In this document: one piece after another, positions 1-17,883 of the stretch
Layout: every line of letters begins with the position of its first letter
Numbering within the stretch: the first letter of the stretch is position 1
Assembly: GCA_965368975.1 (NCBI GenBank)
Contig: CBDUPA010000031.1
Span: forward strand, 1-48,852
Length of the DNA stretch: 48,852 bases
Direction: 5' to 3'
DNA from: an uncultured bacterium
Lineage (GTDB): Bacteria > Acidobacteriota > Thermoanaerobaculia > Multivoradales > JAHZIX01
Notes under the pieces: generated by a model
Told to the model about the DNA's origin: nothing
The model's database searches: none
What the model saw: the letters and a program-made list of their open reading frames with translations, nothing else
Program-made: the position numbers and the translations under genes

Positions 1-820
1 GAAGGTATCCGCGCTACCCGGAGGAATCGGCGTGTTGCAGTAGTCCGCATCCGGCTGGTACGTCAGGTCAGCGCCGCCATTCGTGATCACCACCGTGCCG
101 TTGGCAGGCTGCGTCACACTCGTGACCAGGAACGCATCACCTTCCGGATCGCTGTCATTGTTCAGCACGTCGATCGTCGTCGCCGGATCGTCTTCGGTCA
201 CCGTCGCCGTGTCGTCGATGGCATCAGCCGGATCGTCGGCGCAGGTCACCGTCACGCTCACCGTCGCAGTGTCCCCACCCGTGATCGTGTAGGTGAAGGT
301 ATCCGCGCTACCCGGAGGAATCGGCGTGTTGCAGTAGTCCGCATCCGGCTGGTACGTCAGGTCAGCGCCGCCATTCGTGATCACCACCGTGCCGTTGGCA
401 GGCTGCGTCACACTCGTGACCAGGAACGCATCACCTTCCGGATCGCTGTCATTGTTCAGCACGTCGATCGTCGTCGCCGGATCGTCTTCGGTCACCGTCG
501 CCGTGTCGTCCACCGCCACCGCGGGGTCGTCGAGACACGTTACGGTCACGCTCACCGTCGCCACCGAGCCACCATTCAAGGTGTAGGTGAACGTATCGGC
601 CACACCTGGCGGAATTGGCGTGTTGCAGTAATTCAGATCCGGCGTGTAACTGACGCTGACACCACCATTGTTGACCACGGTGCCGTTGGCAGGCTGCGTC
701 ACCGCGGTAATGGTCATCACACCACCGTCGGGATCGGTATCGTTGGCCAGTACGTCGAGTACGGTGGCACCGGAGTCTTCGTTGACGGTGGCCGCATCGT
801 CGACCCCCACCGGCGGCAGG
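1..820. repeat. Coding tandem repeat, 294-bp period
   Basis: 1-216 is identical to 295-510; a more diverged copy lies at about 589-820. Confidence 0.92.
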
Positions 821-1635
821 GCACTGGTGTCGACGTCGTAGCGCAAGAAGAGGAAGGTGCCGTCGGGGTGGAAAGCAGCGAAGATGCTCAGGAGATCCGA
901 ATTGCCAGCACCTCCGGCCGTGGCGTCACTGAACTGCGCATCAGCGGCTCCGGCCCAATCTCCCACCAGACCGTCGAGTACGATGATGCCGGCAGCCAGT
1001 GCGGTTCCGCCAGAGGCCAGGACCAGCAGCACGGCTAGCACTGAAGTCACCGCTCGACGCTGGCGGCGGAGTTGCCAGGCTGCGGCAACCAGGAGCAGTG
1101 CCATCAGCAACAGCAGAGAGACTTCAGACAGAGTCGGGATCTCGATCGCGCTCTGGCTGACGGCGACGCTCAGATCGAGCACCGCGTCGACGTTGGACAT
1201 GCCGTCGTCCGCTTCGACCGCTAAGCGGACAGTACCGGCGGTGAACGGAGCAGCGAATGGGTAGTACGTCTCGACGACGTCGGCTCCGAACAAGCCAGTC
1301 CCCGCCCCGACCGCCCACGGCGTCGCGAAGTCGGCCACCGGAATCGCCGCACCAAAGGTGTCCGTCACCGGATCGATACACACCTGCCGGCTGACAGCAG
1401 TGACCTGCAGACCAGTGGTGACGGTCAGCAGAATCTCCTCGACACCGCTGAAGGCCCCGTCCACGGTGGCGACGTCACAGCCGGTAGCCATGTTGCCGTC
1501 GAGGTCCAGGTAGGCGCGATAATCGACGGCGGCTGCCGGCGATGCCAGAAGCACGGCAAGGAACGCCAGCACAAGCAGGCGGGACATCGGACACACCGCA
1601 ACCCGACGTGAAGAAGTGGTTCGGCTCAGACGCAT
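1..1635 (-). CDS. Large surface protein (3' end outside window): signal peptide, internal IPTL-CTERM motif, tandem ~98-aa cadherin/Ig-like (Big_9-type) repeats
   Basis: Read manually; absent from the ORF track. ATG at 1635 with AGGAG upstream. Signal-like RLLVLAFLAVLLASPAAA; IPTLSEVSLLLLMALLLVAAAWQLRRQRR at 1140-1054; repeats AVDDTATVTEDD..IDVLNNDSDPEGD..VTQPANGTV..TYQPDADYC..DTFTYT. Frame stays open to position 1. Confidence 0.88.
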   Translation of the reverse strand, partial: MRLSRTTSSRRVAVCPMSRLLVLAFLAVLLASPAAAVDYRAYLDLDGNMATGCDVATVDGAFSGVEEILLTVTTGLQVTAVSRQVCIDPVTDTFGAAIPVADFATPWAVGAGTGLFGADVVETYYPFAAPFTAGTVRLAVEADDGMSNVDAVLDLSVAVSQSAIEIPTLSEVSLLLLMALLLVAAAWQLRRQRRAVTSVLAVLLVLASGGTALAAGIIVLDGLVGDWAGAADAQFSDATAGGAGNSDLLSIFAAFHPDGTFLFLRYDVDTSALPPVGVDDAATVNEDSGATVLDVLANDTDPDGGVMTITAVTQPANGTVVNNGGVSVSYTPDLNYCNTPIPPGVADTFTYTLNGGSVATVSVTVTCLDDPAVAVDDTATVTEDDPATTIDVLNNDSDPEGDAFLVTSVTQPANGTVVITNGGADLTYQPDADYCNTPIPPGSADTFTYTITGGDTATVSVTVTCADDPADAIDDTATVTEDDPATTIDVLNNDSDPEGDAFLVTSVTQPANGTVVITNGGADLTYQPDADYCNTPIPPGSADTF

Positions 1636-1828: not shown

Positions 1829-2434
1829 TCACATCCGCACTCCATCTTCCGGCTCCCCCCACTTCTCGACGCCATAACGCCAGAGTCGCAGTCCGTGCGG
1901 CCAGGCGTCAGCAGGTAGATCGGCTTTCTGCTTGAGCCGTGCCAGGAATTCGCCGGGACGCGGGAACATGTCCCAGACTTGCGGCAGGAAGGTACCGCGA
2001 TGTCCACCCGCTTCCAAAACCAGACCGTCGACGGCCGGACGCAGGAGCTGTACCACCTCGTCCTCGCGCACGGCAGGCAGAGATTCCAGCGGTGACAGTA
2101 AGGAAACCTCCACGCGCGTGTGGTCCAGCTCACCGGAACTCATGGGTGGGAAGCGCGGATCCTCGAAGGCCGCGGCCCGCGCGTTGCGGCACACGTCTTC
2201 GCGCAGCGGTCGATGCGCTTCGATGGTACCGATGCAGCCGCGCAGCCGCCGTGCCTCCTCGGGCGTGTCCTGCGTCAGCGTGACGAAGGTCGCTGCCGGT
2301 GCCGCCAGCCAAACGACCTCGTCCGCACTCAGGTCGAGTGACGGTAGCGGCCGTCCCGGGTTCAGGTTGGAGATCAGGGTACTGCGCGCCAGAGCCAGTA
2401 GGATTTCGCCCTGGCGTGCTGGGGTTGGGGTCAC
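1829..2434 (-). CDS. amrA: AmmeMemoRadiSam system protein A (AMMECR1 family)
   Basis: Motifs ATFVTL..LRGCIG, AAFEDPRFPP, VEVSLLS, DGLVL..GTFLPQVW, LKQKA. GTG at 2434 overlaps the upstream TGA and has AAGGAG upstream. Confidence 0.92.
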   Translation of the reverse strand: MTPTPARQGEILLALARSTLISNLNPGRPLPSLDLSADEVVWLAAPAATFVTLTQDTPEEARRLRGCIGTIEAHRPLREDVCRNARAAAFEDPRFPPMSSGELDHTRVEVSLLSPLESLPAVREDEVVQLLRPAVDGLVLEAGGHRGTFLPQVWDMFPRPGEFLARLKQKADLPADAWPHGLRLWRYGVEKWGEPEDGVRM

Positions 2435-3282
2435 GAAGAAGCTCCTTGGAAGGCGGCAGCTCGGAACGAGACAGCCGCGTACCCTACGACCTGCTCGCGG
2501 TCGCCGTAGGTATCGCCTGAGTTGCGCAGATCGAGCAAGTGCGGCTCGAAACCATGCCGGTGCGCCCACGTCAGCGCGCCGTTGAGGGCATAGGCACCAC
2601 AGGCCTGGCGTGGGTGCAAGTCGTGGTCGAAAGCCAGGATCGCGTCGACGGTGGCGCGGTCGGTCCGGCAGGCCTCGTCATATGGCAGGAAGTGCGACAG
2701 GTCCGTGCTGACCACCACGCGGAGTTCCGGATCGACGCGCCATGCCGCCTCGAGCACCGCCGCCACCTGCTCAGGATCGGCCCAGCCGACGACTAGCGGC
2801 AACAGGGTGAAGGCATCGCCCCACAGTACCTGCAGGAACGGTAGCTCAACTTCCAGTGAGTGCTCCTGCACGTGCGCCGGATCCTCGACCAGCACGCCGG
2901 GCAAGTCGCGCACCGCCGCGACCAATCCGGCATCCAGCTGGACGCGGCCGAGCGGAGTGTCGAAGGCCTTGGCGGACGGCAGCGCGATACCGTAGAAACG
3001 GTGATAGTGCGACGGGCCGATCACCACGACACGCTGTCGCGAGTCCGATGCTGGCTGCGCCATACCGACCGAGCCCCAAGCAGCGAAAGCACTGCCAGCG
3101 ATCGGCCCCGAGAAGTCGTAGCCGGCATGCGGAGCGATCAGCATCGGTGCCGGGCGAGGTTCGGCCCCATGCTCGTGCAAGAGGCCCTCGCGCAAGAAAC
3201 CTTCGACTTGCTGCCGCAGCGCAGCCGCATCGCCAGTGTAGAAGCGCCCGGCGACGGCCGGCGGGCGAACGGTAGTACCCAT
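2431..3282 (-). CDS. amrB: AmmeMemoRadiSam system protein B (MEMO1 family)
   Basis: Motifs RPPAVAGRFY, IAPHAGYDFSG, GPSH, TPLG, EHSLEVELPFLQ, STDLSH, ACG, VVGYA. Confidence 0.94.
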   Translation of the reverse strand: MGTTVRPPAVAGRFYTGDAAALRQQVEGFLREGLLHEHGAEPRPAPMLIAPHAGYDFSGPIAGSAFAAWGSVGMAQPASDSRQRVVVIGPSHYHRFYGIALPSAKAFDTPLGRVQLDAGLVAAVRDLPGVLVEDPAHVQEHSLEVELPFLQVLWGDAFTLLPLVVGWADPEQVAAVLEAAWRVDPELRVVVSTDLSHFLPYDEACRTDRATVDAILAFDHDLHPRQACGAYALNGALTWAHRHGFEPHLLDLRNSGDTYGDREQVVGYAAVSFRAAAFQGASS

Positions 3283-4882: not shown

Positions 4883-5072
4883 GTGTCGGTCTCCGTCGGG
4901 GTGCGATTTCCGGCTGAGCAAGTCAACCGAGCAAAGGCGGTCGATCCTGGGACCAGTCCGGCGGCCGGACCGGCGATATCGTGCTTCGAGTCCGTTGGTT
5001 AGAACGCGCGTAGGATACCTCAAATATTCCGGCGTCCCTAACCCTGGCAGGGGAACGACTTAAAGCATGCCG

Positions 5073-5081
5073 TGGTAGCAT
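5073..5081 (+). promoter_or_regulatory. Possible extended -10 element (TGgTAGCAT) for the amidase/actin operon
   Basis: TGnTAnnnT pattern about 70 nt upstream of ATG 5150 in a divergent intergenic region. Confidence 0.3.
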
Positions 5082-5149
5082 TGAACGTTCGGTGATCAAG
5101 AGAAAGCTCGGCCTTGGACCGAGTTCACGCCGAGAGGAAACTGAGTGCG

Positions 5150-6175
5150 ATGCCCCGCAAGGACCAACTCAAGAGGAAGCTGCTACGGCAGGCGGTGCGC
5201 GAGGACCTGGAGACTCGCGGCGGCCTGGTGCCGCGCCGGTTGCGTCGCGGCTACCGTTGGCGGCGCGTCGGTCTGCGCGTCGGCGTCGCGGCGCTGGTCC
5301 TGCTGCTGCTCGGTGGATCCGCCTGGCTACTCACCGAGGTGATGGCCGGGCCGGACGAGATGCTGGTAGTCACGCAGCTGATCGAGACGCCGGCAGCGAT
5401 GAGTACCGACGGTGCCGCGGCGACCACGGTCCTGCCACCCGAGATGCTGCCGGTACCGGGCGGCGTCGACCCTTCGATGCTCAGCCTGGGTGTGCGCCGG
5501 ATCATCCTCGATCCTGGTCACGGCGGCGTCAACGTCGGCACGGTGGCCCCCGGTGGCCTGCAAGAGAAAGAGATCACCCTCGACGTCGGCCTGCGCCTGC
5601 GCGAGCTACTGGTCGAGGGCGGCTTCGACGTGCGCATGACACGCGAGACCGACGAGGTCGTGGACCTCGACGCACGCACTCACTTCGCCAACCAGGAGAC
5701 CGGTGACATTTTCGTCTCGATCCATGTCAACTGGCTGGAAACGCGCAACGTGCGGGGTGTCGAGACCTACTACCTGGGCCCCACCAATGACCCCTACCTG
5801 CGGCGCATCGCGGCCGCCGAGAATCGCGGCTCCAGCTATTCGCTGGCCGATTTTCGCAATCTGATGGACACACTCTACGCTGGCGTGCGCCAGGAAGAGT
5901 CGCGTGCCCTGGCCGAGGCCATGCAACGCCGTCTGTTCCGCTCGCTGCGTCAACTCAACCCCCAATTGCGCGACCGAGGGGTCAAGACGGCACCTTTTGT
6001 GGTATTGCTGTCTACCGAAATGCCGGCTGTACTCGTCGAGGTCGCGGCTTTGTCCAATCGTGAGGAGGCGCAGTTGCTGTCCAAACCCTTTTATCGTCAG
6101 TTCATCGCACAGGCCCTGTTCGAAGGCATTCGCGCCTACGCGGAAAGCCTGGTTGCAACCGAGGAGACTTCATGA
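5150..6175 (+). CDS. Membrane-anchored N-acetylmuramoyl-L-alanine amidase (Amidase_3)
   Basis: IILDPGHGG, EKEITLDV, MTRETD, FVSIHVN, MPAVLVEV, so zinc and catalytic residues are present. Basic N-terminus followed by one hydrophobic helix. Confidence 0.93.
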   Translation: MPRKDQLKRKLLRQAVREDLETRGGLVPRRLRRGYRWRRVGLRVGVAALVLLLLGGSAWLLTEVMAGPDEMLVVTQLIETPAAMSTDGAAATTVLPPEMLPVPGGVDPSMLSLGVRRIILDPGHGGVNVGTVAPGGLQEKEITLDVGLRLRELLVEGGFDVRMTRETDEVVDLDARTHFANQETGDIFVSIHVNWLETRNVRGVETYYLGPTNDPYLRRIAAAENRGSSYSLADFRNLMDTLYAGVRQEESRALAEAMQRRLFRSLRQLNPQLRDRGVKTAPFVVLLSTEMPAVLVEVAALSNREEAQLLSKPFYRQFIAQALFEGIRAYAESLVATEETS

Positions 6176-7221
6176 GCGGCAACAACGTGAAGGAGCAAAG
6201 CGCCGGCGTCTTGCACGTGGGCATCGATCTGGGCACGTCCCGCAGTTCGGTGTCCGCGTCCAACAACGAGCGCCATGTCATCGACAGCTACGTCGGCTGG
6301 CCGGTCGACATGGTGGCGCGCAAAGTGCTCAAGCGGGAAGTATTGGTGGGCCGTGACGCCCTCGACAACCGTCCGATGCTCGACCTTCATCGCCCACTGG
6401 AACACGGCCTGATCAAGGAAGGCTCCGAGCGCGACGAGCAAGCCGTGCGCGAGCTTCTGCGCCACCTGCTGGTGCTCGCCGGCGTCACGCCGGACACGCG
6501 CAAGAGCTTGCAGGTGCGGGCGGTGGTCGGCGTACCGGCCGAAGCGATGCGCTACAACAAACAGAGCGTACGCGACGCGATCCGTGGCCTGGTCGACAGC
6601 CTGATGATCGTCTCCGAGCCGTTCGCCGTCGCCTACGGCATCGACGAGCTGGTGCACTCGATGATCATCGACTCCGGCGCCGGTAGCACCGACTTCTGCG
6701 TCTTGAGCGGCCGCTACCCCACCGAGAAAGAGCAGCGCACGCTGACCAACGCCGGTGATTGGGTCGACCAACAGCTCTCGACTCTACTGACCGAAAAGCA
6801 CCCGGAAGCCACCTTCTCGATCCATATGGTCCGCGAGTGGAAAGAAAGCTTCGGCTTCGTCGGGGAAGCCAAGGAACCCGTGCTCGTGACCATGCCGGTC
6901 GAGGGCAAGCCGACGGAGATCGACATCACCGCCGAGATGCGCGCCGCCTGTGAGGGGTTGATCCCACCCCTCGCCGAGACCATGGTCGACTTGTTGAGCC
7001 GCATTGAGCCCGAGTACCAGGCCCGCGTGCGTCAGAACATTGTCCTCTCCGGCGGCACCGCCCTGATCCAAGGTCTCGGCGGCAAGCTACAGCAGAACCT
7101 CACCGATGTCGGCGGCGGCCGGGTGCGCGTGGTCAAGGACCCGATCTACGTGGGTTCCGACGGTGCGCTGGCGATCGCACTGGATGCGGGCGAGGCGGAT
7201 TGGGAGAAGCTCACAGAGTAG
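6172..7221 (+). CDS. MamK-like bacterial actin (MreB/MamK superfamily)
   Basis: GIDLGTS (phosphate 1), VVGVPA, VSEPFAVAYG, IIDSGAGSTD (phosphate 2), AGDWVD, NIVLSGG (adenosine). Length 349 aa and many segments match MamK as I recall it better than MreB. Confidence 0.88.
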   Translation: MSGNNVKEQSAGVLHVGIDLGTSRSSVSASNNERHVIDSYVGWPVDMVARKVLKREVLVGRDALDNRPMLDLHRPLEHGLIKEGSERDEQAVRELLRHLLVLAGVTPDTRKSLQVRAVVGVPAEAMRYNKQSVRDAIRGLVDSLMIVSEPFAVAYGIDELVHSMIIDSGAGSTDFCVLSGRYPTEKEQRTLTNAGDWVDQQLSTLLTEKHPEATFSIHMVREWKESFGFVGEAKEPVLVTMPVEGKPTEIDITAEMRAACEGLIPPLAETMVDLLSRIEPEYQARVRQNIVLSGGTALIQGLGGKLQQNLTDVGGGRVRVVKDPIYVGSDGALAIALDAGEADWEKLTE

Positions 7222-7231
7222 AGAGAATATG

Positions 7232-7365
7232 GCTACAGGCCTACCCCTACCCAGATCTCGGATTCAGATCTCCGGGTAGGGGCATCCCCATGTGAGTGTC
7301 CTGAGCACGGGTTGGGAGACGCAGGCTATGAGAAGGGCTGCGGGGCCACCGAGCTCTCCCTACCC
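7232..7365. repeat. GTAG-type REP-like palindromic elements between convergent genes
   Basis: Inverted repeat cccctaccc-agatct...agatct-cc-gggtagggg at 7244-7282, gtaggggcatccccatgtgagtgtcc following it, and a further ccctaccc near 7358. Confidence 0.5.
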
Positions 7366-7377
7366 AGGCGGTTCAGG

Positions 7378-8022
7378 TCAGGTGTCCAGTTCTTCCTGCT
7401 GCCGCCGCTCCTTGAGCGCCGACCAGATCAACCAGCCGCCACCGAGCATCAGCAGCACCGGCCAGTTGCGCCGGAACACGTCCCAGTCGAAGAAGTTGTA
7501 CTCTTCGAGTAGCTGCAACAGGCCGAGCACGAAGATCACGAGGCCGGCGATCATGGTGCCGTTGCCGGGCTTGCCCGGTTTGGCCGCGTCCAGCATTCCC
7601 AGGTCGGCCGCGTAGCCGTGATTGATCAGGTTGGCCTGGCGGTAGGCGTCCAGGACGTTGAACATCCAGGTGAAGGCGATGGCAAAGCCGAAGATCGGTG
7701 AACCGGTCTCGTGCACCATCGCGATGCAGGCGCCGAAGATCAGGAACAGAACGACGCCGCGCTGGTACAGGCCATTGTAAATGTGCCCCATGCCCGGGAA
7801 GAAGGCGAGAAAGGCGGCCAGGGCCGGGCTCTTCTGATTCGGAGACCGGGGGGGTTCCGGGGAGTAGCCCGCCTGGTACGGCGGCGGCGCGTAGTGAGGT
7901 GGCGGCGGCGGACTGCTCGGCGCGCTGTTCGCCGGCTCTGCAGCCGTAGCGGTAGCCGATTCGCCTGCTGGAGGGGCAGGGTCGGAAGTGTTGGCAGTGT
8001 CACGGGTTTCTTCATCAGCCAT
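7378..8022 (-). CDS. Membrane protein with Pro-rich N-terminus, TM2-like segment and C-terminal LiaF/DUF5668-like domain
   Basis: KSPALAAFLAFFPGMGHIYNG; GLVIFVLGLLQLL...NWPVLLMLGGGWLI; AAGGAG before ATG 8022; third gene of the ECF operon. Confidence 0.7.
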   Translation of the reverse strand: MADEETRDTANTSDPAPPAGESATATAAEPANSAPSSPPPPPHYAPPPYQAGYSPEPPRSPNQKSPALAAFLAFFPGMGHIYNGLYQRGVVLFLIFGACIAMVHETGSPIFGFAIAFTWMFNVLDAYRQANLINHGYAADLGMLDAAKPGKPGNGTMIAGLVIFVLGLLQLLEEYNFFDWDVFRRNWPVLLMLGGGWLIWSALKERRQQEELDT

Positions 8023-8051
8023 GGGGTGCTCCTTATGGGGGAAATCCGAGG

Positions 8052-8990
8052 TCAGTCGTCGTTGGAATTCGAGTTGGTCGTCATCTCTGTCTGTGCATCT
8101 GTCTCTTCTTGGAAGACCGCATCTTCCGGGGAGACCGCCTCTTTTTGAGAGAGCAGTCCAAGCAACCACGAAGCCTGCCAGCGCTCCTCCCGAGCCCAGG
8201 TCTCGGGCGAAGTCCAGCCTGCCACCGCGGCACGGCAGCGCAGCGCCTCGACCCCGGCGGCCAGGTCTTCGGCCTCCTGCTGCCAGAGCTTGCTATAGCC
8301 ACCCAGCTCTTCGCGGCCACTCACCAGCACCGGCTGCACCTCGGTACTGATCTGGCGCACCACCTGGCTCCACCAGACCTCGGCACGGCTCCGCGTCTGC
8401 GTGACGGCACCGAGTACCGACGACTCGAGCCGCACCCGACTGCCCTCGGCGAAGGCCTGCGGGTCACCGATCCAGAGCTGCAGCGCAAGTGCCATCAGCA
8501 GGCTCGCCGCCAGTGCCCAGCGCGGCTCACGTAGGCTGCGCGGCAGTCTTTGCTGCTGGCGCGGCTTCTTGCGTGCCACGGCCGGCAGACGGAACACCAG
8601 GCGCGCCGGCAGTTCCAGACGCGGCAAGTGCACCGCTGCCTCTAGCGCTGCGACCACTGTCTGGCAGCGCGCACAGGCGTCGACGTGACGGTGCAGGGCA
8701 ACCATCTCCGACGACACTGGCTTGGGCGCTGGCCCGGCGCCGTCGGTTTCCAGCAACTCGTTCCAGCGTCGGTCGACGTCGCGGCACAGCACGATCTGCC
8801 GCGGCAAGGCGCGCAGCCGCTCCATCAGTGCCGCCGATGGCTCCAGCTCGGGCACGCCGGACCAAGCAGTAACGGCCTGTGGCCGGTCTATCCGAGGCGC
8901 GGGCTGTAACCACTCTCGAAAGGCTTGCCATGCCTGCCGTGGCAGGCGCCGCAGCGTTTCATGCATCGACAGTGCATCCGTTCGCTTCAT
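8052..8990 (-). CDS. Putative anti-sigma factor (zf-HC2-like HxxxCxxC plus TM helix)
   Basis: HVDACARC motif, hydrophobic WALAASLLMALALQLW, immediately downstream of the ECF sigma factor. Confidence 0.75.
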   Translation of the reverse strand: MKRTDALSMHETLRRLPRQAWQAFREWLQPAPRIDRPQAVTAWSGVPELEPSAALMERLRALPRQIVLCRDVDRRWNELLETDGAGPAPKPVSSEMVALHRHVDACARCQTVVAALEAAVHLPRLELPARLVFRLPAVARKKPRQQQRLPRSLREPRWALAASLLMALALQLWIGDPQAFAEGSRVRLESSVLGAVTQTRSRAEVWWSQVVRQISTEVQPVLVSGREELGGYSKLWQQEAEDLAAGVEALRCRAAVAGWTSPETWAREERWQASWLLGLLSQKEAVSPEDAVFQEETDAQTEMTTNSNSNDD

Positions 8991-8991
8991 G

Positions 8992-9618
8992 TCACACCTC
9001 CGCCAAGACCGCGCCGTCCAGCGGAGAGGCTCCGCCGTCCGCTGCCGTGGGTACCAGCCGCGCCGCCACGCGCTCGGCAAGCTCCCGGCGAGCCCGCGCC
9101 AGTCGCGACTTCAGCGTGCCCATCGGCACATCTTGGAAGGTGGCTACCTCTTCGTAGCTCCAGCCTTGTAGGTCGCGCAGCAGCACTGCCGTCGCCATGT
9201 CTTGGTTCATCTCTTCGAGCGCTCCGTACACCGCGCGCAGCCGCTGACGGCGCTGGGTACGAGCGTGCGGATCGTCGCCGCCCGGTAGTTGCTCCAGAAT
9301 CGCCTCGGGCACCCGTCGCGAGCGCGCCTCGAGTCGCGCCCGGCGGTAGCGCTCGATGCACAGGTTCTTGCTCAGCGTCAACGCCCAGGCGACCAACGGT
9401 ACCTTGCCGTGGTACTTCTCGAGATTCCGGTACAGCTTCATGAAGATCTCCTGGGTCAAGTCCTCGGCCTCCGCCGCATTGCCCGCGAACTGGAAGGCCA
9501 GGTTGTAGATCTTGCGGCCATACAGCCGGATCAACTCATCCCAAGCCGCCGCCTCGCCGTCCGCGGCGCGGCGGGCCAGATCGCTGTCGTGTTTTGGGTT
9601 CCAGGTCGACCTCATCAT
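8992..9618 (-). CDS. ECF RNA polymerase sigma-70 factor
   Basis: AEDLTQEIFMKLY (region 2); LRDLQGWSYEEVA...GTLKSRLARARREL (region 4). Confidence 0.95.
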   Translation of the reverse strand: MMRSTWNPKHDSDLARRAADGEAAAWDELIRLYGRKIYNLAFQFAGNAAEAEDLTQEIFMKLYRNLEKYHGKVPLVAWALTLSKNLCIERYRRARLEARSRRVPEAILEQLPGGDDPHARTQRRQRLRAVYGALEEMNQDMATAVLLRDLQGWSYEEVATFQDVPMGTLKSRLARARRELAERVAARLVPTAADGGASPLDGAVLAEV

Positions 9619-13927: not shown

Positions 13928-14893
13928 ATGTTCGGCCGTCGATCTTCGCGCCAGCTTCAGCTACCCCCTCGAGTCCTCCTCGGCTGGCTCTGCCTAGTCA
14001 CGAGCCTTGGCGCCGGATCGACACCAGCACTGCCAACCGAAACAGTGCCAGCCGAGAGGATGCCAACCGAGACGGTGCCGGCCGGGCCCCTCGACGTCAC
14101 CGGAAAGGTCCAGAACCCCGACGGCACACCGCGGGCCGGTGCCGTCGCGGTGCTGGAGCCTCGGTACGCGGATGCGGCCTCTGGGCAGATCCGCACCGTC
14201 TCGACCGCCTCCAGTGACGACGACGGCCTCTTTCGCTTGCGGGCACCGAAAGCCGGGATGTGGCGGGTGACGGTGCGCGCGAACGGCATGCTGCCGATGC
14301 GCCACCACCTGGCTCTCGGTGCCTCGGAAACGCTGCCCGCCGTCACCTTACGGCCCGCCGTCGACCTACGCGTCGAGATCACGCGCGCCGCCGCCATCCC
14401 GCTGGCCGGAGCTCACGTCCTCGCCAGTTCCGGCACCACGACCGGCATCAGCGCTTGGTATCCGGCACCGCGGGAAGGCAAGAGCGGCGACGACGGTCTG
14501 CTCATCTTGCCGCGCGGCCACGGCGAAGCGCTCCGTCTACTCGCGCAAGCCCCTGGCCACCAGAGCGGCAGCCTCGAAGTAGACGCCGACAACCCCACCA
14601 CCGCCGTCCGCCTCGACCTCGCCGCCACCACCGCCGTCACCGGACGCGTCCAGAACCCAGACCGCCAACCCATCGCCGATGCCGAAGTCCGGCTGCTGCG
14701 CAGTGGCGCTCCACTCGGAGTCCCACATGTCACCCACAGCCGGCGCAACGGTGACTTCGCCGTCCAGGGCCTGGCCCCGGGCGAGTACAAAATCCGCGTC
14801 GCGGCGCCGGGTTACCGCACCGAGGAAGCGTCCGTGGATGTGGCGGAGAATGCGGCGCTCGAAGACCTGCTGGTTGTGCTGGCGCCGCGCTAG
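13928..14893 (+). CDS. Carboxypeptidase-regulatory-like (beta-sandwich) repeat protein
   Basis: Repeats VTGKVQNPDGTPRAGA and VTGRVQNPDRQPIADAEV..GDFAVQGLAPGEYKIRVAAPGY; N-terminal hydrophobic segment; start uncertain (13907 or 13928). Confidence 0.72.
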   Translation: MFGRRSSRQLQLPPRVLLGWLCLVTSLGAGSTPALPTETVPAERMPTETVPAGPLDVTGKVQNPDGTPRAGAVAVLEPRYADAASGQIRTVSTASSDDDGLFRLRAPKAGMWRVTVRANGMLPMRHHLALGASETLPAVTLRPAVDLRVEITRAAAIPLAGAHVLASSGTTTGISAWYPAPREGKSGDDGLLILPRGHGEALRLLAQAPGHQSGSLEVDADNPTTAVRLDLAATTAVTGRVQNPDRQPIADAEVRLLRSGAPLGVPHVTHSRRNGDFAVQGLAPGEYKIRVAAPGYRTEEASVDVAENAALEDLLVVLAPR

Positions 14894-17883
14894 AACGGAT
14901 TCCCCAGGCTCAAGAACACCTCCGCCGGCGACTCACCGTCGAGACGGTCGAGCTTCCAGCCGACTTCTAGACGCACGGGACCGATCGGCGACTGATAGCG
15001 CACGCCGACGCCAACGCCGTAGCTGAGTTCGGAGGGATCGATCTCCTGCCAGTCGCGCCAGACGTTGCCAGCGTCGACGAAAAGGGCGCCGCCGAGGGCG
15101 TCGGCGAGGGGGAAGCGGTATTCGAGGTTGGCGAGCAGCAGGCCGTTGCCGCCGACGGGAACGAGGCGGCGGGAGCCGTCGGTGTTGGTCTGGGCGATCA
15201 GGGTCTCGCCGAGGATACCGAGTTCGTCGCGGTCGTAGGCACGATGGGAAGTACGGCCTCCGGCGAAGAAGCGCTCGCCGATGGGAACGGGATTGACGGC
15301 TTCGATCGGCAGTGCGCCGGACGGAGCTTCGTCGACCAAGGGCTCGATACCACCGACGCGAACGCTGGCGGCGAGGACGCCGAAGCGGCCGAAGGGGAGG
15401 TACCCGGTCTGCTGGATGAAGAGCTTGCCGAAGTGGGCGTCAGCATCGAGAACCGGGAAGGCATACTGCAGCTGCACGACGGTGCTCCAACCGCGGGTGG
15501 GGTCGAAAGCGTCGTCGCGACGATCGAGCAGCAGGGCGGGGATGATACTGGAGATCTGGACTTCCTGGTCTTCGCGCTCGATCTCGTTGAGCGGAATGTC
15601 GACCTCGTCGAGATCGACCAGCCGGTAGTCGTAGACCAAGCCGAAGCGGTTGCCGTGCGGGGTTTCGTACAGGCTCTCGACCCGCAGGCCGATACTGCGC
15701 TGTTGGAAGCTTTCGCGGTCATCGTCGAAGCCGAAGAGCGAGTAATTGATCGGCAAGCGCAGAGAGCCCACGAAGGGTTGACTGAAGAGCAAGCGGAAGC
15801 GCTGATCGCGCTGAGAAATACGCAGGTCGAGCTGCGCGGTCAGAGCACGGCCGTCGATGTTGGTGCGGGTGACACCGAAGAGGCCGCGCAGGCCATCTTC
15901 GGAATCGTAGCCACCGCCGTAGATCAAGCGATAGGAACTCGCCTCTTCGACCCGCACCACGACGTCGCGCCCTTCACCCAACAGACCACCGGGCAATAGC
16001 TCGACGTCGACGCGCGAGAAGATACCCAGGCGATTCAGCTCGCGCTCGACCTCGAGCAAGCGGGTACGGCTGACCGGATCACCGTGGTCGAGGGCGACGA
16101 CCCGGCGCAGGAAGCTGGCGCGGGTCGCTCGGTTGCCCCGGATCAGCACGCGATCAACGACGGTGCGCGGACCTTCGAGCACCTGCAGTGTTACTTCGAC
16201 CAGGGTCTCGTCAATCCACTCCAGGAGCGGTGAGATCTGCACCTGGGTGTAGCCGAATTCGGCGTAGCGGGTGCGGAGAACCTCGAGTGCATCTTCGAGC
16301 AGACGCGGATGGAAGGGCTTGCCTTCGCCCAGCGGCAGCTCGTTGACCCAGGGACCGAACTCGAGACGGCGAAGCCCTTCGAGCACCAGACTGGCGACGC
16401 GCCGTCGCGGCCCCTCGACGATCGGAATGACGACGCGCAGAGCCTTGCCGTCCCGCTCGACGATCTCCGGGCCGATCTGCGCTTGCCAGAAGCCGCGCAG
16501 CGCGTAGTACGAGCGCAAATTCTCGAGATCGGCCTGCAGCGTCTCGGTGACCAGACGGCCGCTGCCCGGGCTGAAGGCACGGCGCGGCGCGGTGGCCATG
16601 AGGTCGAGCAAGACGTCGTCGAGCATGGCCTCGTTGCCTTCCAGCTCCAGCGTCTGCAACTGGAAGGCGTCTCCCGGTTCGATGCCGATGTGGACGCGCA
16701 GCAGCTCGCTGCCAGCCTCGATCAATGCCTCCTCTTGGACGTCGACACGCACCCGGTAGTGGCCCTTGCGCTGGTAGTAGCGGCGTAAGCGGCGCTGCGA
16801 TTCGAGCAGCAAGGCGTAGTCATAGCCATCCTCGGCGAACAGCGGCAGCAGGTCGCGATCCCGCAGATCGTCGACGTCGCCGCCGGTCAGCGCCACTTCG
16901 ACTTTCGGTCCAAGACGCAGGGGATAGCTGAGGTCGACGACGATGGCTTCCGTGGAGTGAGACTCCGGGGAAGGCTCCGTGCGTACCTGCAGTGGCCGGT
17001 CGACGCGCGCCAGGCGGTAGCCCTGGCCCACCAGCCAGCGGCGAAGGCGTTCGCGGTCGTCGCGCACTTCGGCGCCCACGAAGGGGGTTCCGGACGTCAC
17101 CTGCAGTTGCTGGCGCAGGGTGTCGACATCGAAGGGACCGAAGTCACCATCGAAGCGCACTCGGCCGACGCGGGCGCGCGGACCGCAGTCGATGTCGAAG
17201 CGAACGGCGGCGCGGCGGCGCGAGGTATCGGTGTCAATGTCCAGCCGCACGTCGGCTTGCAAGTAGCCGGCGCGCTCGTAGCGCTCCTGCAGGGCCTCGA
17301 GGCTCTGCTGCAAGCTCTCTTCGGACAGGGGCTCGCCGGAACTCTGCGTAATGGCTTCGCGCAGCTGCACCTCGGGTAGGCACAGAGATTCTTCGGACGC
17401 GCCAGTGGTGCGAGTAACGAGGTCGATCGTCTCGACCAGCAGGTGCGAGCGCAGCACGACGATCACCTCGATGCTCGCCTCCCCCTTGGGGCCTGCACCG
17501 GTTCCTACGGCGCCGGTTCCTACGGCTACAGGCCGGCGGTAGATCTCGACCGCTTCGAAGCGACCGGTGGCGTGTAGGTTGCGCAACGTACGGCGCACAG
17601 CGGCACCGGTCAGCGTCTGGCCGACGTCGAAGGTCAGTAGCTGGCGCAGGTCGTCGCCGTCCTCGATCTCCGCATCGGCACGCAGCTCGATGGCAGCGAT
17701 GCGTGGCCCCGGTTCGTCGACCGGAGCTTCTTGCGCCCGACTCGACGCTGCAGGCACCAGCACGACCAAGAGGCCGACCGCCAGTGTTGCCCGCAAGCAT
17801 GTTGCCCACCAGCGTGCAGCCAGCAGCGGTGTAGCCAGGAGGAGGCGCGGTAAGTACGCCCGTAGGCGTTCGGCGGTGCGCAT
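14890..17883 (-). CDS. BamA/TamA (Omp85) family outer-membrane protein with multiple POTRA domains
   Basis: POTRA-like repeats; RFFAGGRTSHRAY; GVGVRYQSPIGPVRLEVG; C-terminal Phe; adjacent to TamB. Confidence 0.92.
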   Translation of the reverse strand: MRTAERLRAYLPRLLLATPLLAARWWATCLRATLAVGLLVVLVPAASSRAQEAPVDEPGPRIAAIELRADAEIEDGDDLRQLLTFDVGQTLTGAAVRRTLRNLHATGRFEAVEIYRRPVAVGTGAVGTGAGPKGEASIEVIVVLRSHLLVETIDLVTRTTGASEESLCLPEVQLREAITQSSGEPLSEESLQQSLEALQERYERAGYLQADVRLDIDTDTSRRRAAVRFDIDCGPRARVGRVRFDGDFGPFDVDTLRQQLQVTSGTPFVGAEVRDDRERLRRWLVGQGYRLARVDRPLQVRTEPSPESHSTEAIVVDLSYPLRLGPKVEVALTGGDVDDLRDRDLLPLFAEDGYDYALLLESQRRLRRYYQRKGHYRVRVDVQEEALIEAGSELLRVHIGIEPGDAFQLQTLELEGNEAMLDDVLLDLMATAPRRAFSPGSGRLVTETLQADLENLRSYYALRGFWQAQIGPEIVERDGKALRVVIPIVEGPRRRVASLVLEGLRRLEFGPWVNELPLGEGKPFHPRLLEDALEVLRTRYAEFGYTQVQISPLLEWIDETLVEVTLQVLEGPRTVVDRVLIRGNRATRASFLRRVVALDHGDPVSRTRLLEVERELNRLGIFSRVDVELLPGGLLGEGRDVVVRVEEASSYRLIYGGGYDSEDGLRGLFGVTRTNIDGRALTAQLDLRISQRDQRFRLLFSQPFVGSLRLPINYSLFGFDDDRESFQQRSIGLRVESLYETPHGNRFGLVYDYRLVDLDEVDIPLNEIEREDQEVQISSIIPALLLDRRDDAFDPTRGWSTVVQLQYAFPVLDADAHFGKLFIQQTGYLPFGRFGVLAASVRVGGIEPLVDEAPSGALPIEAVNPVPIGERFFAGGRTSHRAYDRDELGILGETLIAQTNTDGSRRLVPVGGNGLLLANLEYRFPLADALGGALFVDAGNVWRDWQEIDPSELSYGVGVGVRYQSPIGPVRLEVGWKLDRLDGESPAEVFLSLGNPF

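Follow-up and report, generated by a model that had tools for sequence, protein, structure and literature searches.

A MamK-like actin gene paired with a peptidoglycan amidase gene in Acidobacteriota

The stretch of DNA analysed here, 48,852 nucleotides from an uncultured member of the Acidobacteriota and called the window throughout, carries at positions 5150–7221 a translationally coupled cassette of two genes: one for an N-acetylmuramoyl-L-alanine amidase of the Amidase_3 family and, immediately 3' of it on the same strand, one for an actin-fold adenosine triphosphatase (ATPase) related to MamK. This actin–amidase cassette is conserved and apparently undescribed. The chances seem evenly balanced that the actin, as a filament, binds a short tail of the amidase and positions or gates peptidoglycan cleavage. 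A preliminary description of the sequence had recognised the actin gene and proposed a MamK-clade filament with a non-magnetosome role; that proposal is supported in substance, and the conserved amidase partner, which it did not mention, is the best clue to what the role may be.

Among bacterial actins, MreB directs the synthesis of the wall, FtsA acts in division, ParM segregates DNA and MamK aligns organelles, and we know of none that is hard-wired to a wall hydrolase. The placement of autolytic amidases is itself a long-standing question, answered mainly for divisomes of the Escherichia coli type.

The actin and its place among MamK-like proteins

Translation of the second gene gives the 349-residue actin-fold protein that had been reported at this position, and all 11 motifs quoted in the preliminary description occur at exact positions: GIDLGTS at residue 17, YVGWPVD at 40, VVGVPA at 118, VSEPFAVAYG at 147, DSGAGSTD at 167, TLTNAGDWVD at 190, KESFGFVG at 224, GKP at 245, ACE at 259, PEYQARVRQNIVLSGG at 280 and VKDP at 321, with the Trp near the C-terminus at 344 of 349. 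GIDLGTS, SEPF (148–151), DSGAGSTD and LSGG (292–295) align with MamK, and the MamK set of phosphate-1, connect-1 (xEPx), phosphate-2 (DxGxGxxD) and adenosine (GG) motifs, as these are named in PMC10653835, is present.

Judged by sequence comparison, the resemblance to MamK is well beyond chance. Against the Protein Data Bank (PDB), phmmer returned MamK first (5jyg_A, E 9.3e-75, 255.3 bits over residues 9–347, with the SEPF, DxGAGxTD and GG motifs in register), bearing out the segment-by-segment correspondence of the preliminary description; BeeR (8r2n, 2.9e-42, 148 bits) and MreB (4cze, 7.6e-08, 35 bits) followed. NCBIfam likewise ranked MamK NF040964 first at 362.2 bits (cut-off 400) and BeeR NF053558 next at 211.3 (cut-off 530), with two MreB models at 64.1 (cut-off 293) and 50.9 bits (cut-off 365.75). 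In Pfam the sole strong family was MreB_Mbl, a modest match of 71.6 bits, with Actin weaker; weak HSP70 and DnaK matches were also returned by Pfam and NCBIfam. Identity as BeeR was rejected on the score, on a separate clade and on the lack of a 30–50 residue N-terminal extension, and identity as MreB on scores under both NCBIfam cut-offs and the lack of mreC or mreD neighbours.

An AlphaFold2 (AF2) model of the actin, built from 22 orthologues, points the same way. Its top structural matches are the MamK structures 5ljw and 5ljv (E 1.6e-33 to 9e-33, 38–39% identity), with template modelling (TM) scores of 0.77/0.82 against the 5ljv filament subunit, and below MamK come BeeR 8r2n at 31% identity and then MreBs and actins at 17–24%. 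The first strand of the model begins at residue 12, leaving about 11 residues ahead of it. By analogy with its family, the actin may be expected to form filaments. The residue equivalent to A278 was considered as a sign of non-polymerisation, A278D MamK being non-polymerising according to the title of PDB 5ljw, and was dropped, as the column varies even among representatives of the true-MamK clade.

The wider family was surveyed among 1.84 billion cluster representatives, where 968 clusters (50% identity) passed a threshold of E<=0.001 and 181 the stricter one of E<=1e-30. A tree of 55 rows was built with IQ-TREE under LG+C20+F+G4 by posterior mean site frequencies (PMSF), with the genome's own MreB as outgroup; support is given as ultrafast bootstrap / SH-like approximate likelihood ratio test (SH-aLRT). 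Reference points were set by PDB matches, P0155 having 463 bits to MamK 5jyg and P0231 having 403 bits to BeeR 8r2n; grouped with P0155, by source name, are a P. magneticum MamK-like protein, a Magnetococcales metagenome-assembled genome (MAG) and 'Deltaproteobacteria bacterium TL4'. The BeeR clade has a support of 97/95, and all remaining MamK-like rows stand together at 97/91. Among them, the clade with the characterised MamK (99/99) excludes the window actin. All amidase-linked actins, the window protein included, form one clade (98/92, with an eight-row core at 100/100) that takes in two distant acidobacterial members and a Nitrospira-labelled representative named 'MamK family' by NCBI (P0125). 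The genome's own MreB is a long outgroup branch, and the window actin does not group with it.

The 'MamK-clade' assignment of the preliminary description therefore stands for the wide MamK-like group that excludes BeeR, and falls for the clade of characterised MamK and for the NCBIfam cut-off. On this sequence-based reading, the actin is MamK-like in the wide sense and does not belong to the clade of magnetosome MamK. The 400-bit NCBIfam line itself splits a continuum, since 3 of 10 non-magnetotactic representatives pass it, at 411–425 bits; it is exceeded in none of the 41 genomes of the order. Other MamK-like clades carry the labels Gemmatimonadota, Verrucomicrobiota, Planctomycetota, Nitrosomonadaceae and ANME-2 archaea.

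The window lies on contig C31 of a 7.13-Mb, 59-contig genome that is 99.3% complete. The NCBIfam search for magnetosome families in this genome covered MamI, MamO, MamP and MamQ, with MamA, B, E, L and M outside it. MamI gave no match, a null that comes without a positive control, as the model matched none of 14 control genomes; MamP reached 24 bits (cut-off 300), not on C31, MamQ 80 bits (cut-off 250) on C33, and MamO 79 bits (cut-off 800) on C7 and C13. Weak Mam matches of the same kind also turn up among the 14 non-magnetotactic controls, in 6 to 12 of them. To the extent of this search, the genome appears to be without a magnetosome cluster, in keeping with the non-magnetosome role first proposed. 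The accessions NF040962 (near_HgcAB) and NF040967 (cytc_ExtN), which adjoin that of MamK in NCBIfam, were set aside as unrelated families. A canonical mreB–mreC pair lies elsewhere, on contig C9 (MreB at 14631–15602, 491 bits to Pfam MreB_Mbl; MreC at 15999–16427), and the window actin is 30% identical to this MreB. Near the actin itself there are no mam genes and no mreC or mreD, as had been observed: its flanks hold a POT transporter, Memo and AMMECR1 upstream on the minus strand, and a membrane protein and an extracytoplasmic function (ECF) sigma factor downstream.

Three further observations concern the family at large. A well-supported clade of long proteins (523–1232 amino acids) carries the MamK-like domain at the C-terminus (P0131, P0136, P0137, P0139, P0141–P0148, P0150 and P0152); their N-termini look like coiled coils and share motifs such as K(K/E)RFREWT(K/R)SLG, and Pfam found no family in the N-terminal parts of 10 of them. 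P0189 (768 amino acids), placed in the true-MamK clade by FastTree, has by eye an FtsZ-type-looking N-terminus fused to the MamK domain. MAGs of ANME-2/Methanosarcinales encode a MamK-like actin, P0164, that is annotated as a rod shape-determining protein and forms a clade with P0230 (99/97).

The amidase and the conservation of the pair

The longest open reading frame (ORF) of the amidase begins at TTG 5114 and encodes 353 amino acids; the start was taken at ATG 5150 because it fits the N-termini of the orthologues better and has GAGAGGAA ahead of it at 5132–5139. In the domain test the protein scores 164.7 bits with Pfam PF01520 (cut-off 27). Four residues, H124, E139, H192 and E297, are the same in all of 22 orthologues, and we take them to be the ligands of the zinc and the catalytic Glu. 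The best PDB match is E. coli AmiA (8c2o, 1.9e-27), with a TM score of 0.85 on the target and a root-mean-square deviation of 2.4, and phmmer alignments to AmiA 8c2o, AmiB-like 3ne8 and AmiC 4bin cover residues 111–332 of the query, including the insert. For CwlV, LytH and CwlD the best stretch is only about 116–214 of the amidase, and the insert is absent from CwlV and LytH. From the alignment of its insert, the amidase is taken to be of the regulated cell-separation type, in which case the insert would probably be auto-inhibitory here also. None of the NCBIfam equivalogs is reached (CwlD 120 of 222 bits, AmiA 101 of 400, AmiC 88 of 700, AmiB 75 of 532), and Pfam finds no AMIN domain. The gene is an extra paralogue, the genome having three genes of the Amidase_3 family in all.

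Ahead of the catalytic domain lies an N-terminal tail of 40 residues, with a helix motif of the form xRLKRxLLRxAVxENLxxIxG that is seen by eye in most of 76 orthologue N-termini. Across the 22 orthologues of alignment A3, V16 is invariant, and K8, N19 and L20 are conserved at 90% or more; beside this conserved helix the Ala/Pro-rich linker at residues 66–112, which would lie in the periplasm, is hypervariable and of low model confidence. The AF2 model of the amidase shows a helix at 2–23, with a predicted local distance difference test (pLDDT) score of about 80–84, and one long helix at 29–65. The hydrophobic segment is read as a signal-anchor transmembrane helix, with a twin-arginine export signal as the alternative; searches of Pfam and NCBIfam gave no match of the amidase to TAT-signal families at E<=0.001. 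Membrane proteins are oriented by the positive-inside rule, and on this ground the Arg-rich tail is predicted to be cytoplasmic and the catalytic domain periplasmic.

In several genomes that lack the actin (G316, G168, G268, G239 and others), amidase matches begin at query residues 25–58 and include the hydrophobic segment, not the tail helix. By their sequences, these may be amidases that are anchored without an actin handle.

The linkage of the two genes is close to universal. An amidase gene lies immediately 5' of the actin gene, on the same strand, at 12 of 12 loci of the same order; this arrangement recurs at 23 of 23 loci of a scan across the phylum, two of them at 48–50% actin identity, and at 79 of 80 named species-representative loci, the single miss having only 50 base pairs of upstream sequence. 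Another 14 ORFs of the window, tested at these 80 loci, fare quite differently, the POT transporter being found at 2, an outer-membrane-protein ORF at 3 and the rest at none. The ORFs of five reference loci were also searched against the 42 loci whose flanks are complete. Apart from the antisense shadow ORFs of the two cassette genes, nothing but these two genes was common to all 42, and the next ORF was present at 14.

Co-occurrence was followed at the level of the order and of the phylum. Of 40 relatives within the order, 39 encode the actin, and each genome also has a separate MreB-level match. Among these actins 38 are intact and score 346–391 bits with the MamK model, and the remaining one is divided between two contigs; the relative that lacks the actin is G028. 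In an evenly sampled set of 301 genomes of the phylum the actin is present in 24, namely G000, all 10 genomes of the order, 8 of the 16 sampled elsewhere in the class and 5 of the 274 that belong to different classes. The sample includes three genomes flagged as unpublished (G063, G088 and G189), none of which is among the 24, and the counts are unaffected by their removal. Amidase matches at E<=5e-66 occur only in actin-positive genomes, 22 of the 24, and the remaining two (G090 and G254) have an adjoining amidase at about 1e-52. The best amidase match in an actin-negative genome of the sample, at 2.6e-58, covers the catalytic domain only.

The pair also extends beyond the phylum, at least by label. 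In a collection of named species-level genomes, at least 594 stretches encode a relative of the actin, and the best 80 of them, at 61–72% identity, are labelled Acidobacteriota (68, including 41 Thermoanaerobaculia and 7 Holophagae), Binatota (5), Rokubacteria/Methylomirabilota (4) and 'Deltaproteobacteria' (3), bearing in mind that the taxon labels of MAGs can be wrong. None of these best 80 is from an organism known as magnetotactic. In the source annotation the relatives are called 'rod shape-determining protein'.

At 14 of the 42 fully flanked loci, a gene for a PilZ-domain protein of about 510 amino acids stands 5' of the amidase (for example L045:7314–8843, Pfam PilZ 44.6 bits). The window has the divergent POT transporter at this position, and two tandem homologues of the PilZ protein lie elsewhere, at C14:61521–65039 on the minus strand. 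The presence of the domain hints at an input from cyclic di-guanosine monophosphate (c-di-GMP) in some lineages of the cassette.

A possible link between filament and amidase

The nature of the two proteins, their linkage and joint occurrence, the conservation of the tail, the integrity of the catalytic and ATP-binding motifs and the lack of any magnetosome match over cut-off in the search above are observed; polymerisation, tail binding, membrane topology and the cellular process served are inferred. In the model proposed, the actin, like MamK and BeeR, would polymerise in the cytoplasm, and the filament would bind the tail of the amidase, whose catalytic domain would face the periplasm while its tail faces the cytoplasm. 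The filament could thereby set the place or the time at which the additional amidase cleaves peptidoglycan, the septum, the poles and the side wall being possible sites.

Binding was addressed by complex prediction, with the actin and residues 1–40 of the amidase as input, each with its own alignment of 22 rows, and with three controls. The runs scored 0.51, 0.54 and 0.55 (median 0.54), set against 0.01 for the best control, with a partner pLDDT of at least 53 and agreement between runs in at least 54% of contacts. The verdict of the procedure was 'weak support' for binding of the tail by the modelled actin, which counts slightly in its favour and does not prove it. Of the pairs used for calibration, 58 of 80 solved complexes and 2 of 110 mismatched pairs came up to the mark; at scores of 0.60 or less stand 7 of the 80 solved complexes together with both passing mismatches, counts that are rough because of the own alignments.

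A number of points weigh against the model. By the calibration, passes at scores like the median of 0.54 are wrong more often than they are right, except for pairs that were likely beforehand, and the prediction returned no interface. The AF2 model of the actin is itself moderate (pLDDT 73.8, predicted TM score 0.66, with residues 327–349 at the C-terminus below 50), and the tree does not resolve the order of branching among the MamK-like clades, with a bootstrap correlation of 0.941 that is not fully settled. Gene linkage alone does not establish physical contact. A regular-expression search found no tail motif in 22 long or extended MamK relatives, and the motif is thus not a general tag for partners of MamK. 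Finally, the Arg-rich stretch and the moderately hydrophobic segment after it could be a cleavable twin-arginine signal, in which case the mature amidase would no longer be tethered to its tail.

The chief rivals to the tethered-amidase model are two. The first, which is unlikely while being the better placed, holds that the genes are co-expressed without contact: the actin would organise some other cargo, such as DNA, a storage granule or a polar complex, and the amidase would share its operon by serving the same process, for example division. Only linkage and co-occurrence are firmly established, the prediction of binding is weak, and MamK, ParM and other bacterial actins move cytoplasmic cargo (PMC11929497), all of which would suit this view. 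It meets the difficulty, however, that there is no third conserved gene to act as a cargo adaptor, the next ORF being shared by a third of the loci. The amidase, moreover, keeps a conserved cytoplasmic helix for which a periplasmic enzyme would otherwise have no need, and the linkage holds even where actin identity has fallen to 48%, at loci that bear several different phylum labels.

Slightly less probable again is that the N-terminus is a long signal of the twin-arginine type and that the actin-fold ATPase, with or without filaments, is a dedicated chaperone or timer for export of the amidase, acting on this signal in the cytoplasm to retain or free the enzyme and not to place it in the membrane. 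E. coli AmiA and AmiC are substrates of the twin-arginine translocation (Tat) system, and it is AmiA that the catalytic domain most resembles; in most orthologues Arg pairs directly precede a moderately hydrophobic segment containing Pro and Gly, and the actin fold is shared with ATPases of the Hsp70 type, as the weak HSP70 and DnaK matches recall. Against export gating, however, stand the lack of a TAT-signal family match at the threshold given above, the modelling of residues 29–65 as a single long helix, and the fact that no conserved Ala-x-Ala cleavage site is evident by eye past the hydrophobic segment in alignment A3. The nearest relatives of the actin, by a wide margin over any chaperone, are also MamK and BeeR, which form filaments.

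A second shape protein of the MreB type, steering wall synthesis, would accord with the public annotation of the relatives and with MreB_Mbl as the strong family in Pfam, and is nonetheless improbable: the NCBIfam MreB scores are far below their cut-offs, identity to the genome's own MreB is 30%, that MreB adjoins mreC on C9 while the window actin has no mreCD neighbours, and the partner is a hydrolase, not a synthase. That the protein is a true magnetosome MamK, in a host not recognised as magnetotactic, can be dismissed almost entirely, even with MamK as the nearest characterised family, given the lack of MamI/O/P/Q matches over cut-off in a near-complete genome (none on C31), its position outside the characterised-MamK clade, and an actin that 39 of the 40 relatives within the order have kept, with an adjoining amidase at 12 of 12 loci.

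Taken at its widest, the tethered-amidase model would describe a new cytoskeletal system, in which a MamK-like filament grips the tail of a bitopic amidase and sets the place or time of cleavage, encoded by a cassette of two genes that is conserved throughout Acidobacteriota and recurs in MAGs with the labels Binatota and Rokubacteria/Methylomirabilota, with a PilZ partner in some lineages; for this fuller picture the balance tips a little to the negative. If true, an amidase with its own cytoplasmic handle and a dedicated actin would be a new solution to the placement of amidases, and the cassette would be the hydrolase counterpart of the synthesis machinery of MreB and RodZ. Consisting of two genes and one short peptide, it is directly testable. 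More generally MamK, often used as a marker gene of magnetotaxis, has a large non-magnetosome radiation, as reflected in the 968 clusters and the at least 594 relatives in species-level genomes, and for these actins the public names 'rod shape-determining protein' and, in places, 'MamK family' both mislead.

Flanking genes, and comparison with known systems

The features of the window that bear on the cassette and its surroundings are collected in Table 1.

Table 1. Coordinates of the cassette, its parts and flanking features in the window
Feature	Position	Strand	Remarks
Amidase gene (Amidase_3; N-acetylmuramoyl-L-alanine amidase, predicted to be membrane-anchored)	5150–6175	+	341 amino acids from ATG 5150
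Amidase N-terminal tail, residues 1–40, read as cytoplasmic	5150–5269	+	Conserved helix at about 2–23, then Arg-rich stretch
Amidase hydrophobic segment, residues about 42–65	5273–5344	+	Hydropathy maxima just past the Arg-rich stretch in orthologues
Amidase_3 catalytic domain, including insert typical of AmiA/B/C type	5501–6133	+	Pfam match
Gene junction	6161–6175	+	Shine-Dalgarno-like GAGGAG 6161–6166; actin ATG 6172–6174 overlaps amidase TGA 6173–6175 (ATGA)
MamK-like actin-fold ATPase gene	6172–7221	+	ATG start, 349 amino acids (P0001)
Partial ORF, secreted protein with tandem repeats of about 95 amino acids (DDTATVTEDDPATTIDVLNNDSDPEGD...)	1–1635	-	
AMMECR1 (146.5 bits) and Memo (147.9 bits), overlapping gene pair	1829–3282	-	Pfam
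Three overlapping ORFs	7378–9618	-	ECF sigma factor, 342-amino-acid ORF, 263-amino-acid membrane protein
ECF sigma factor	8992–9618	-	Sigma70_r2/r4

No gene 3' of the actin appears to belong with the cassette: the sole co-directional ORF on that side, at 7292–7615, has matches at 0 of the 80 loci and overlaps the membrane-protein ORF of the minus strand. A scan of 4900–7500 for promoters and terminators gave no promoter-like site and two terminator-like sites, both on the minus strand, which is no more than in shuffled sequences. The minus-strand membrane protein of 263 amino acids, convergent to the actin gene, is Pro-rich and has a borderline match to a LiaI-LiaF-like transmembrane family (26.9 bits, cut-off 27). 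The ORF of 342 amino acids beside the sigma factor has no family match and may encode its anti-sigma factor. In the partial secreted protein at the edge of the window, a segment consisting of IPTLSEV, a hydrophobic stretch and RRQRR presumably resembles an IPTL-CTERM sorting signal; its location within the N-terminal third, and not at the end, is odd.

No paper that connects an amidase with a MamK-like actin was found in the literature covered, which did not extend to subscription journals and supplements. Judging by titles and abstracts, the papers found in a search for MamK-like actins outside magnetotaxis concern magnetotactic bacteria or silent magnetosome clusters, and a search for MamK in Acidobacteria returned nothing relevant among its listed results. 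The accessible text of the 2023 mBio work on MamK and Mad28 deals with magnetotactic donors only (PMC10653835).

MamK itself (5jyg, 5ljv, 5ljw; NF040964) is the best sequence and structural match to the window actin, sharing its fold and ATP-binding motifs. The window actin differs from it in scoring below the 400-bit cut-off, in lying outside the characterised-MamK clade and in coming from a genome with no MamI/O/P/Q match over cut-off, and its partner is a peptidoglycan amidase rather than MamJ, MamY or magnetosome proteins of the McaA/B type.

BeeR (8r2n) resembles the window actin in being a relative of MamK from non-magnetotactic bacteria, and provides a precedent for non-magnetosome roles in the MamK-like radiation. 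It is a MamK-related family (25–30% identity), forms ATP-dependent three-stranded tubular filaments in Verrucomicrobiota and has as its hallmark a disordered N-terminal extension of 30–50 residues; its function is stated as unknown, and no partner gene is named (PMC11929497). The window actin is distant from it (148 bits, 31% identity in the structural alignment), falls in a separate clade and is missing the hallmark extension.

The working analogy for the proposed mechanism is the pair formed by MreB and RodZ (2wus), in which an actin filament in the cytoplasm holds a bitopic membrane protein by its cytoplasmic part and so steers periplasmic wall enzymes. MreB is about 20% identical to the window actin in structural alignments, and RodZ binds it through a helix-turn-helix domain, not through a single short helix. 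The two systems would also differ in output, as MreB and RodZ steer synthesis, whereas the tethered enzyme of the cassette would itself be the hydrolase.

In the E. coli divisome (FtsA–FtsN, FtsEX–EnvC–AmiA/B and NlpD–AmiC), amidases of the same type as that of the cassette, with the regulatory insert, are employed under a shared logic, in which a cytoplasmic ATPase or actin-fold protein governs the splitting of septal peptidoglycan in the periplasm. The amidases of E. coli are soluble periplasmic proteins activated by LytM factors. Unlike them, the cassette amidase, which has no AMIN domain detected by Pfam, would carry its own cytoplasmic handle, and it is paired not with FtsA but with a MamK-like actin.

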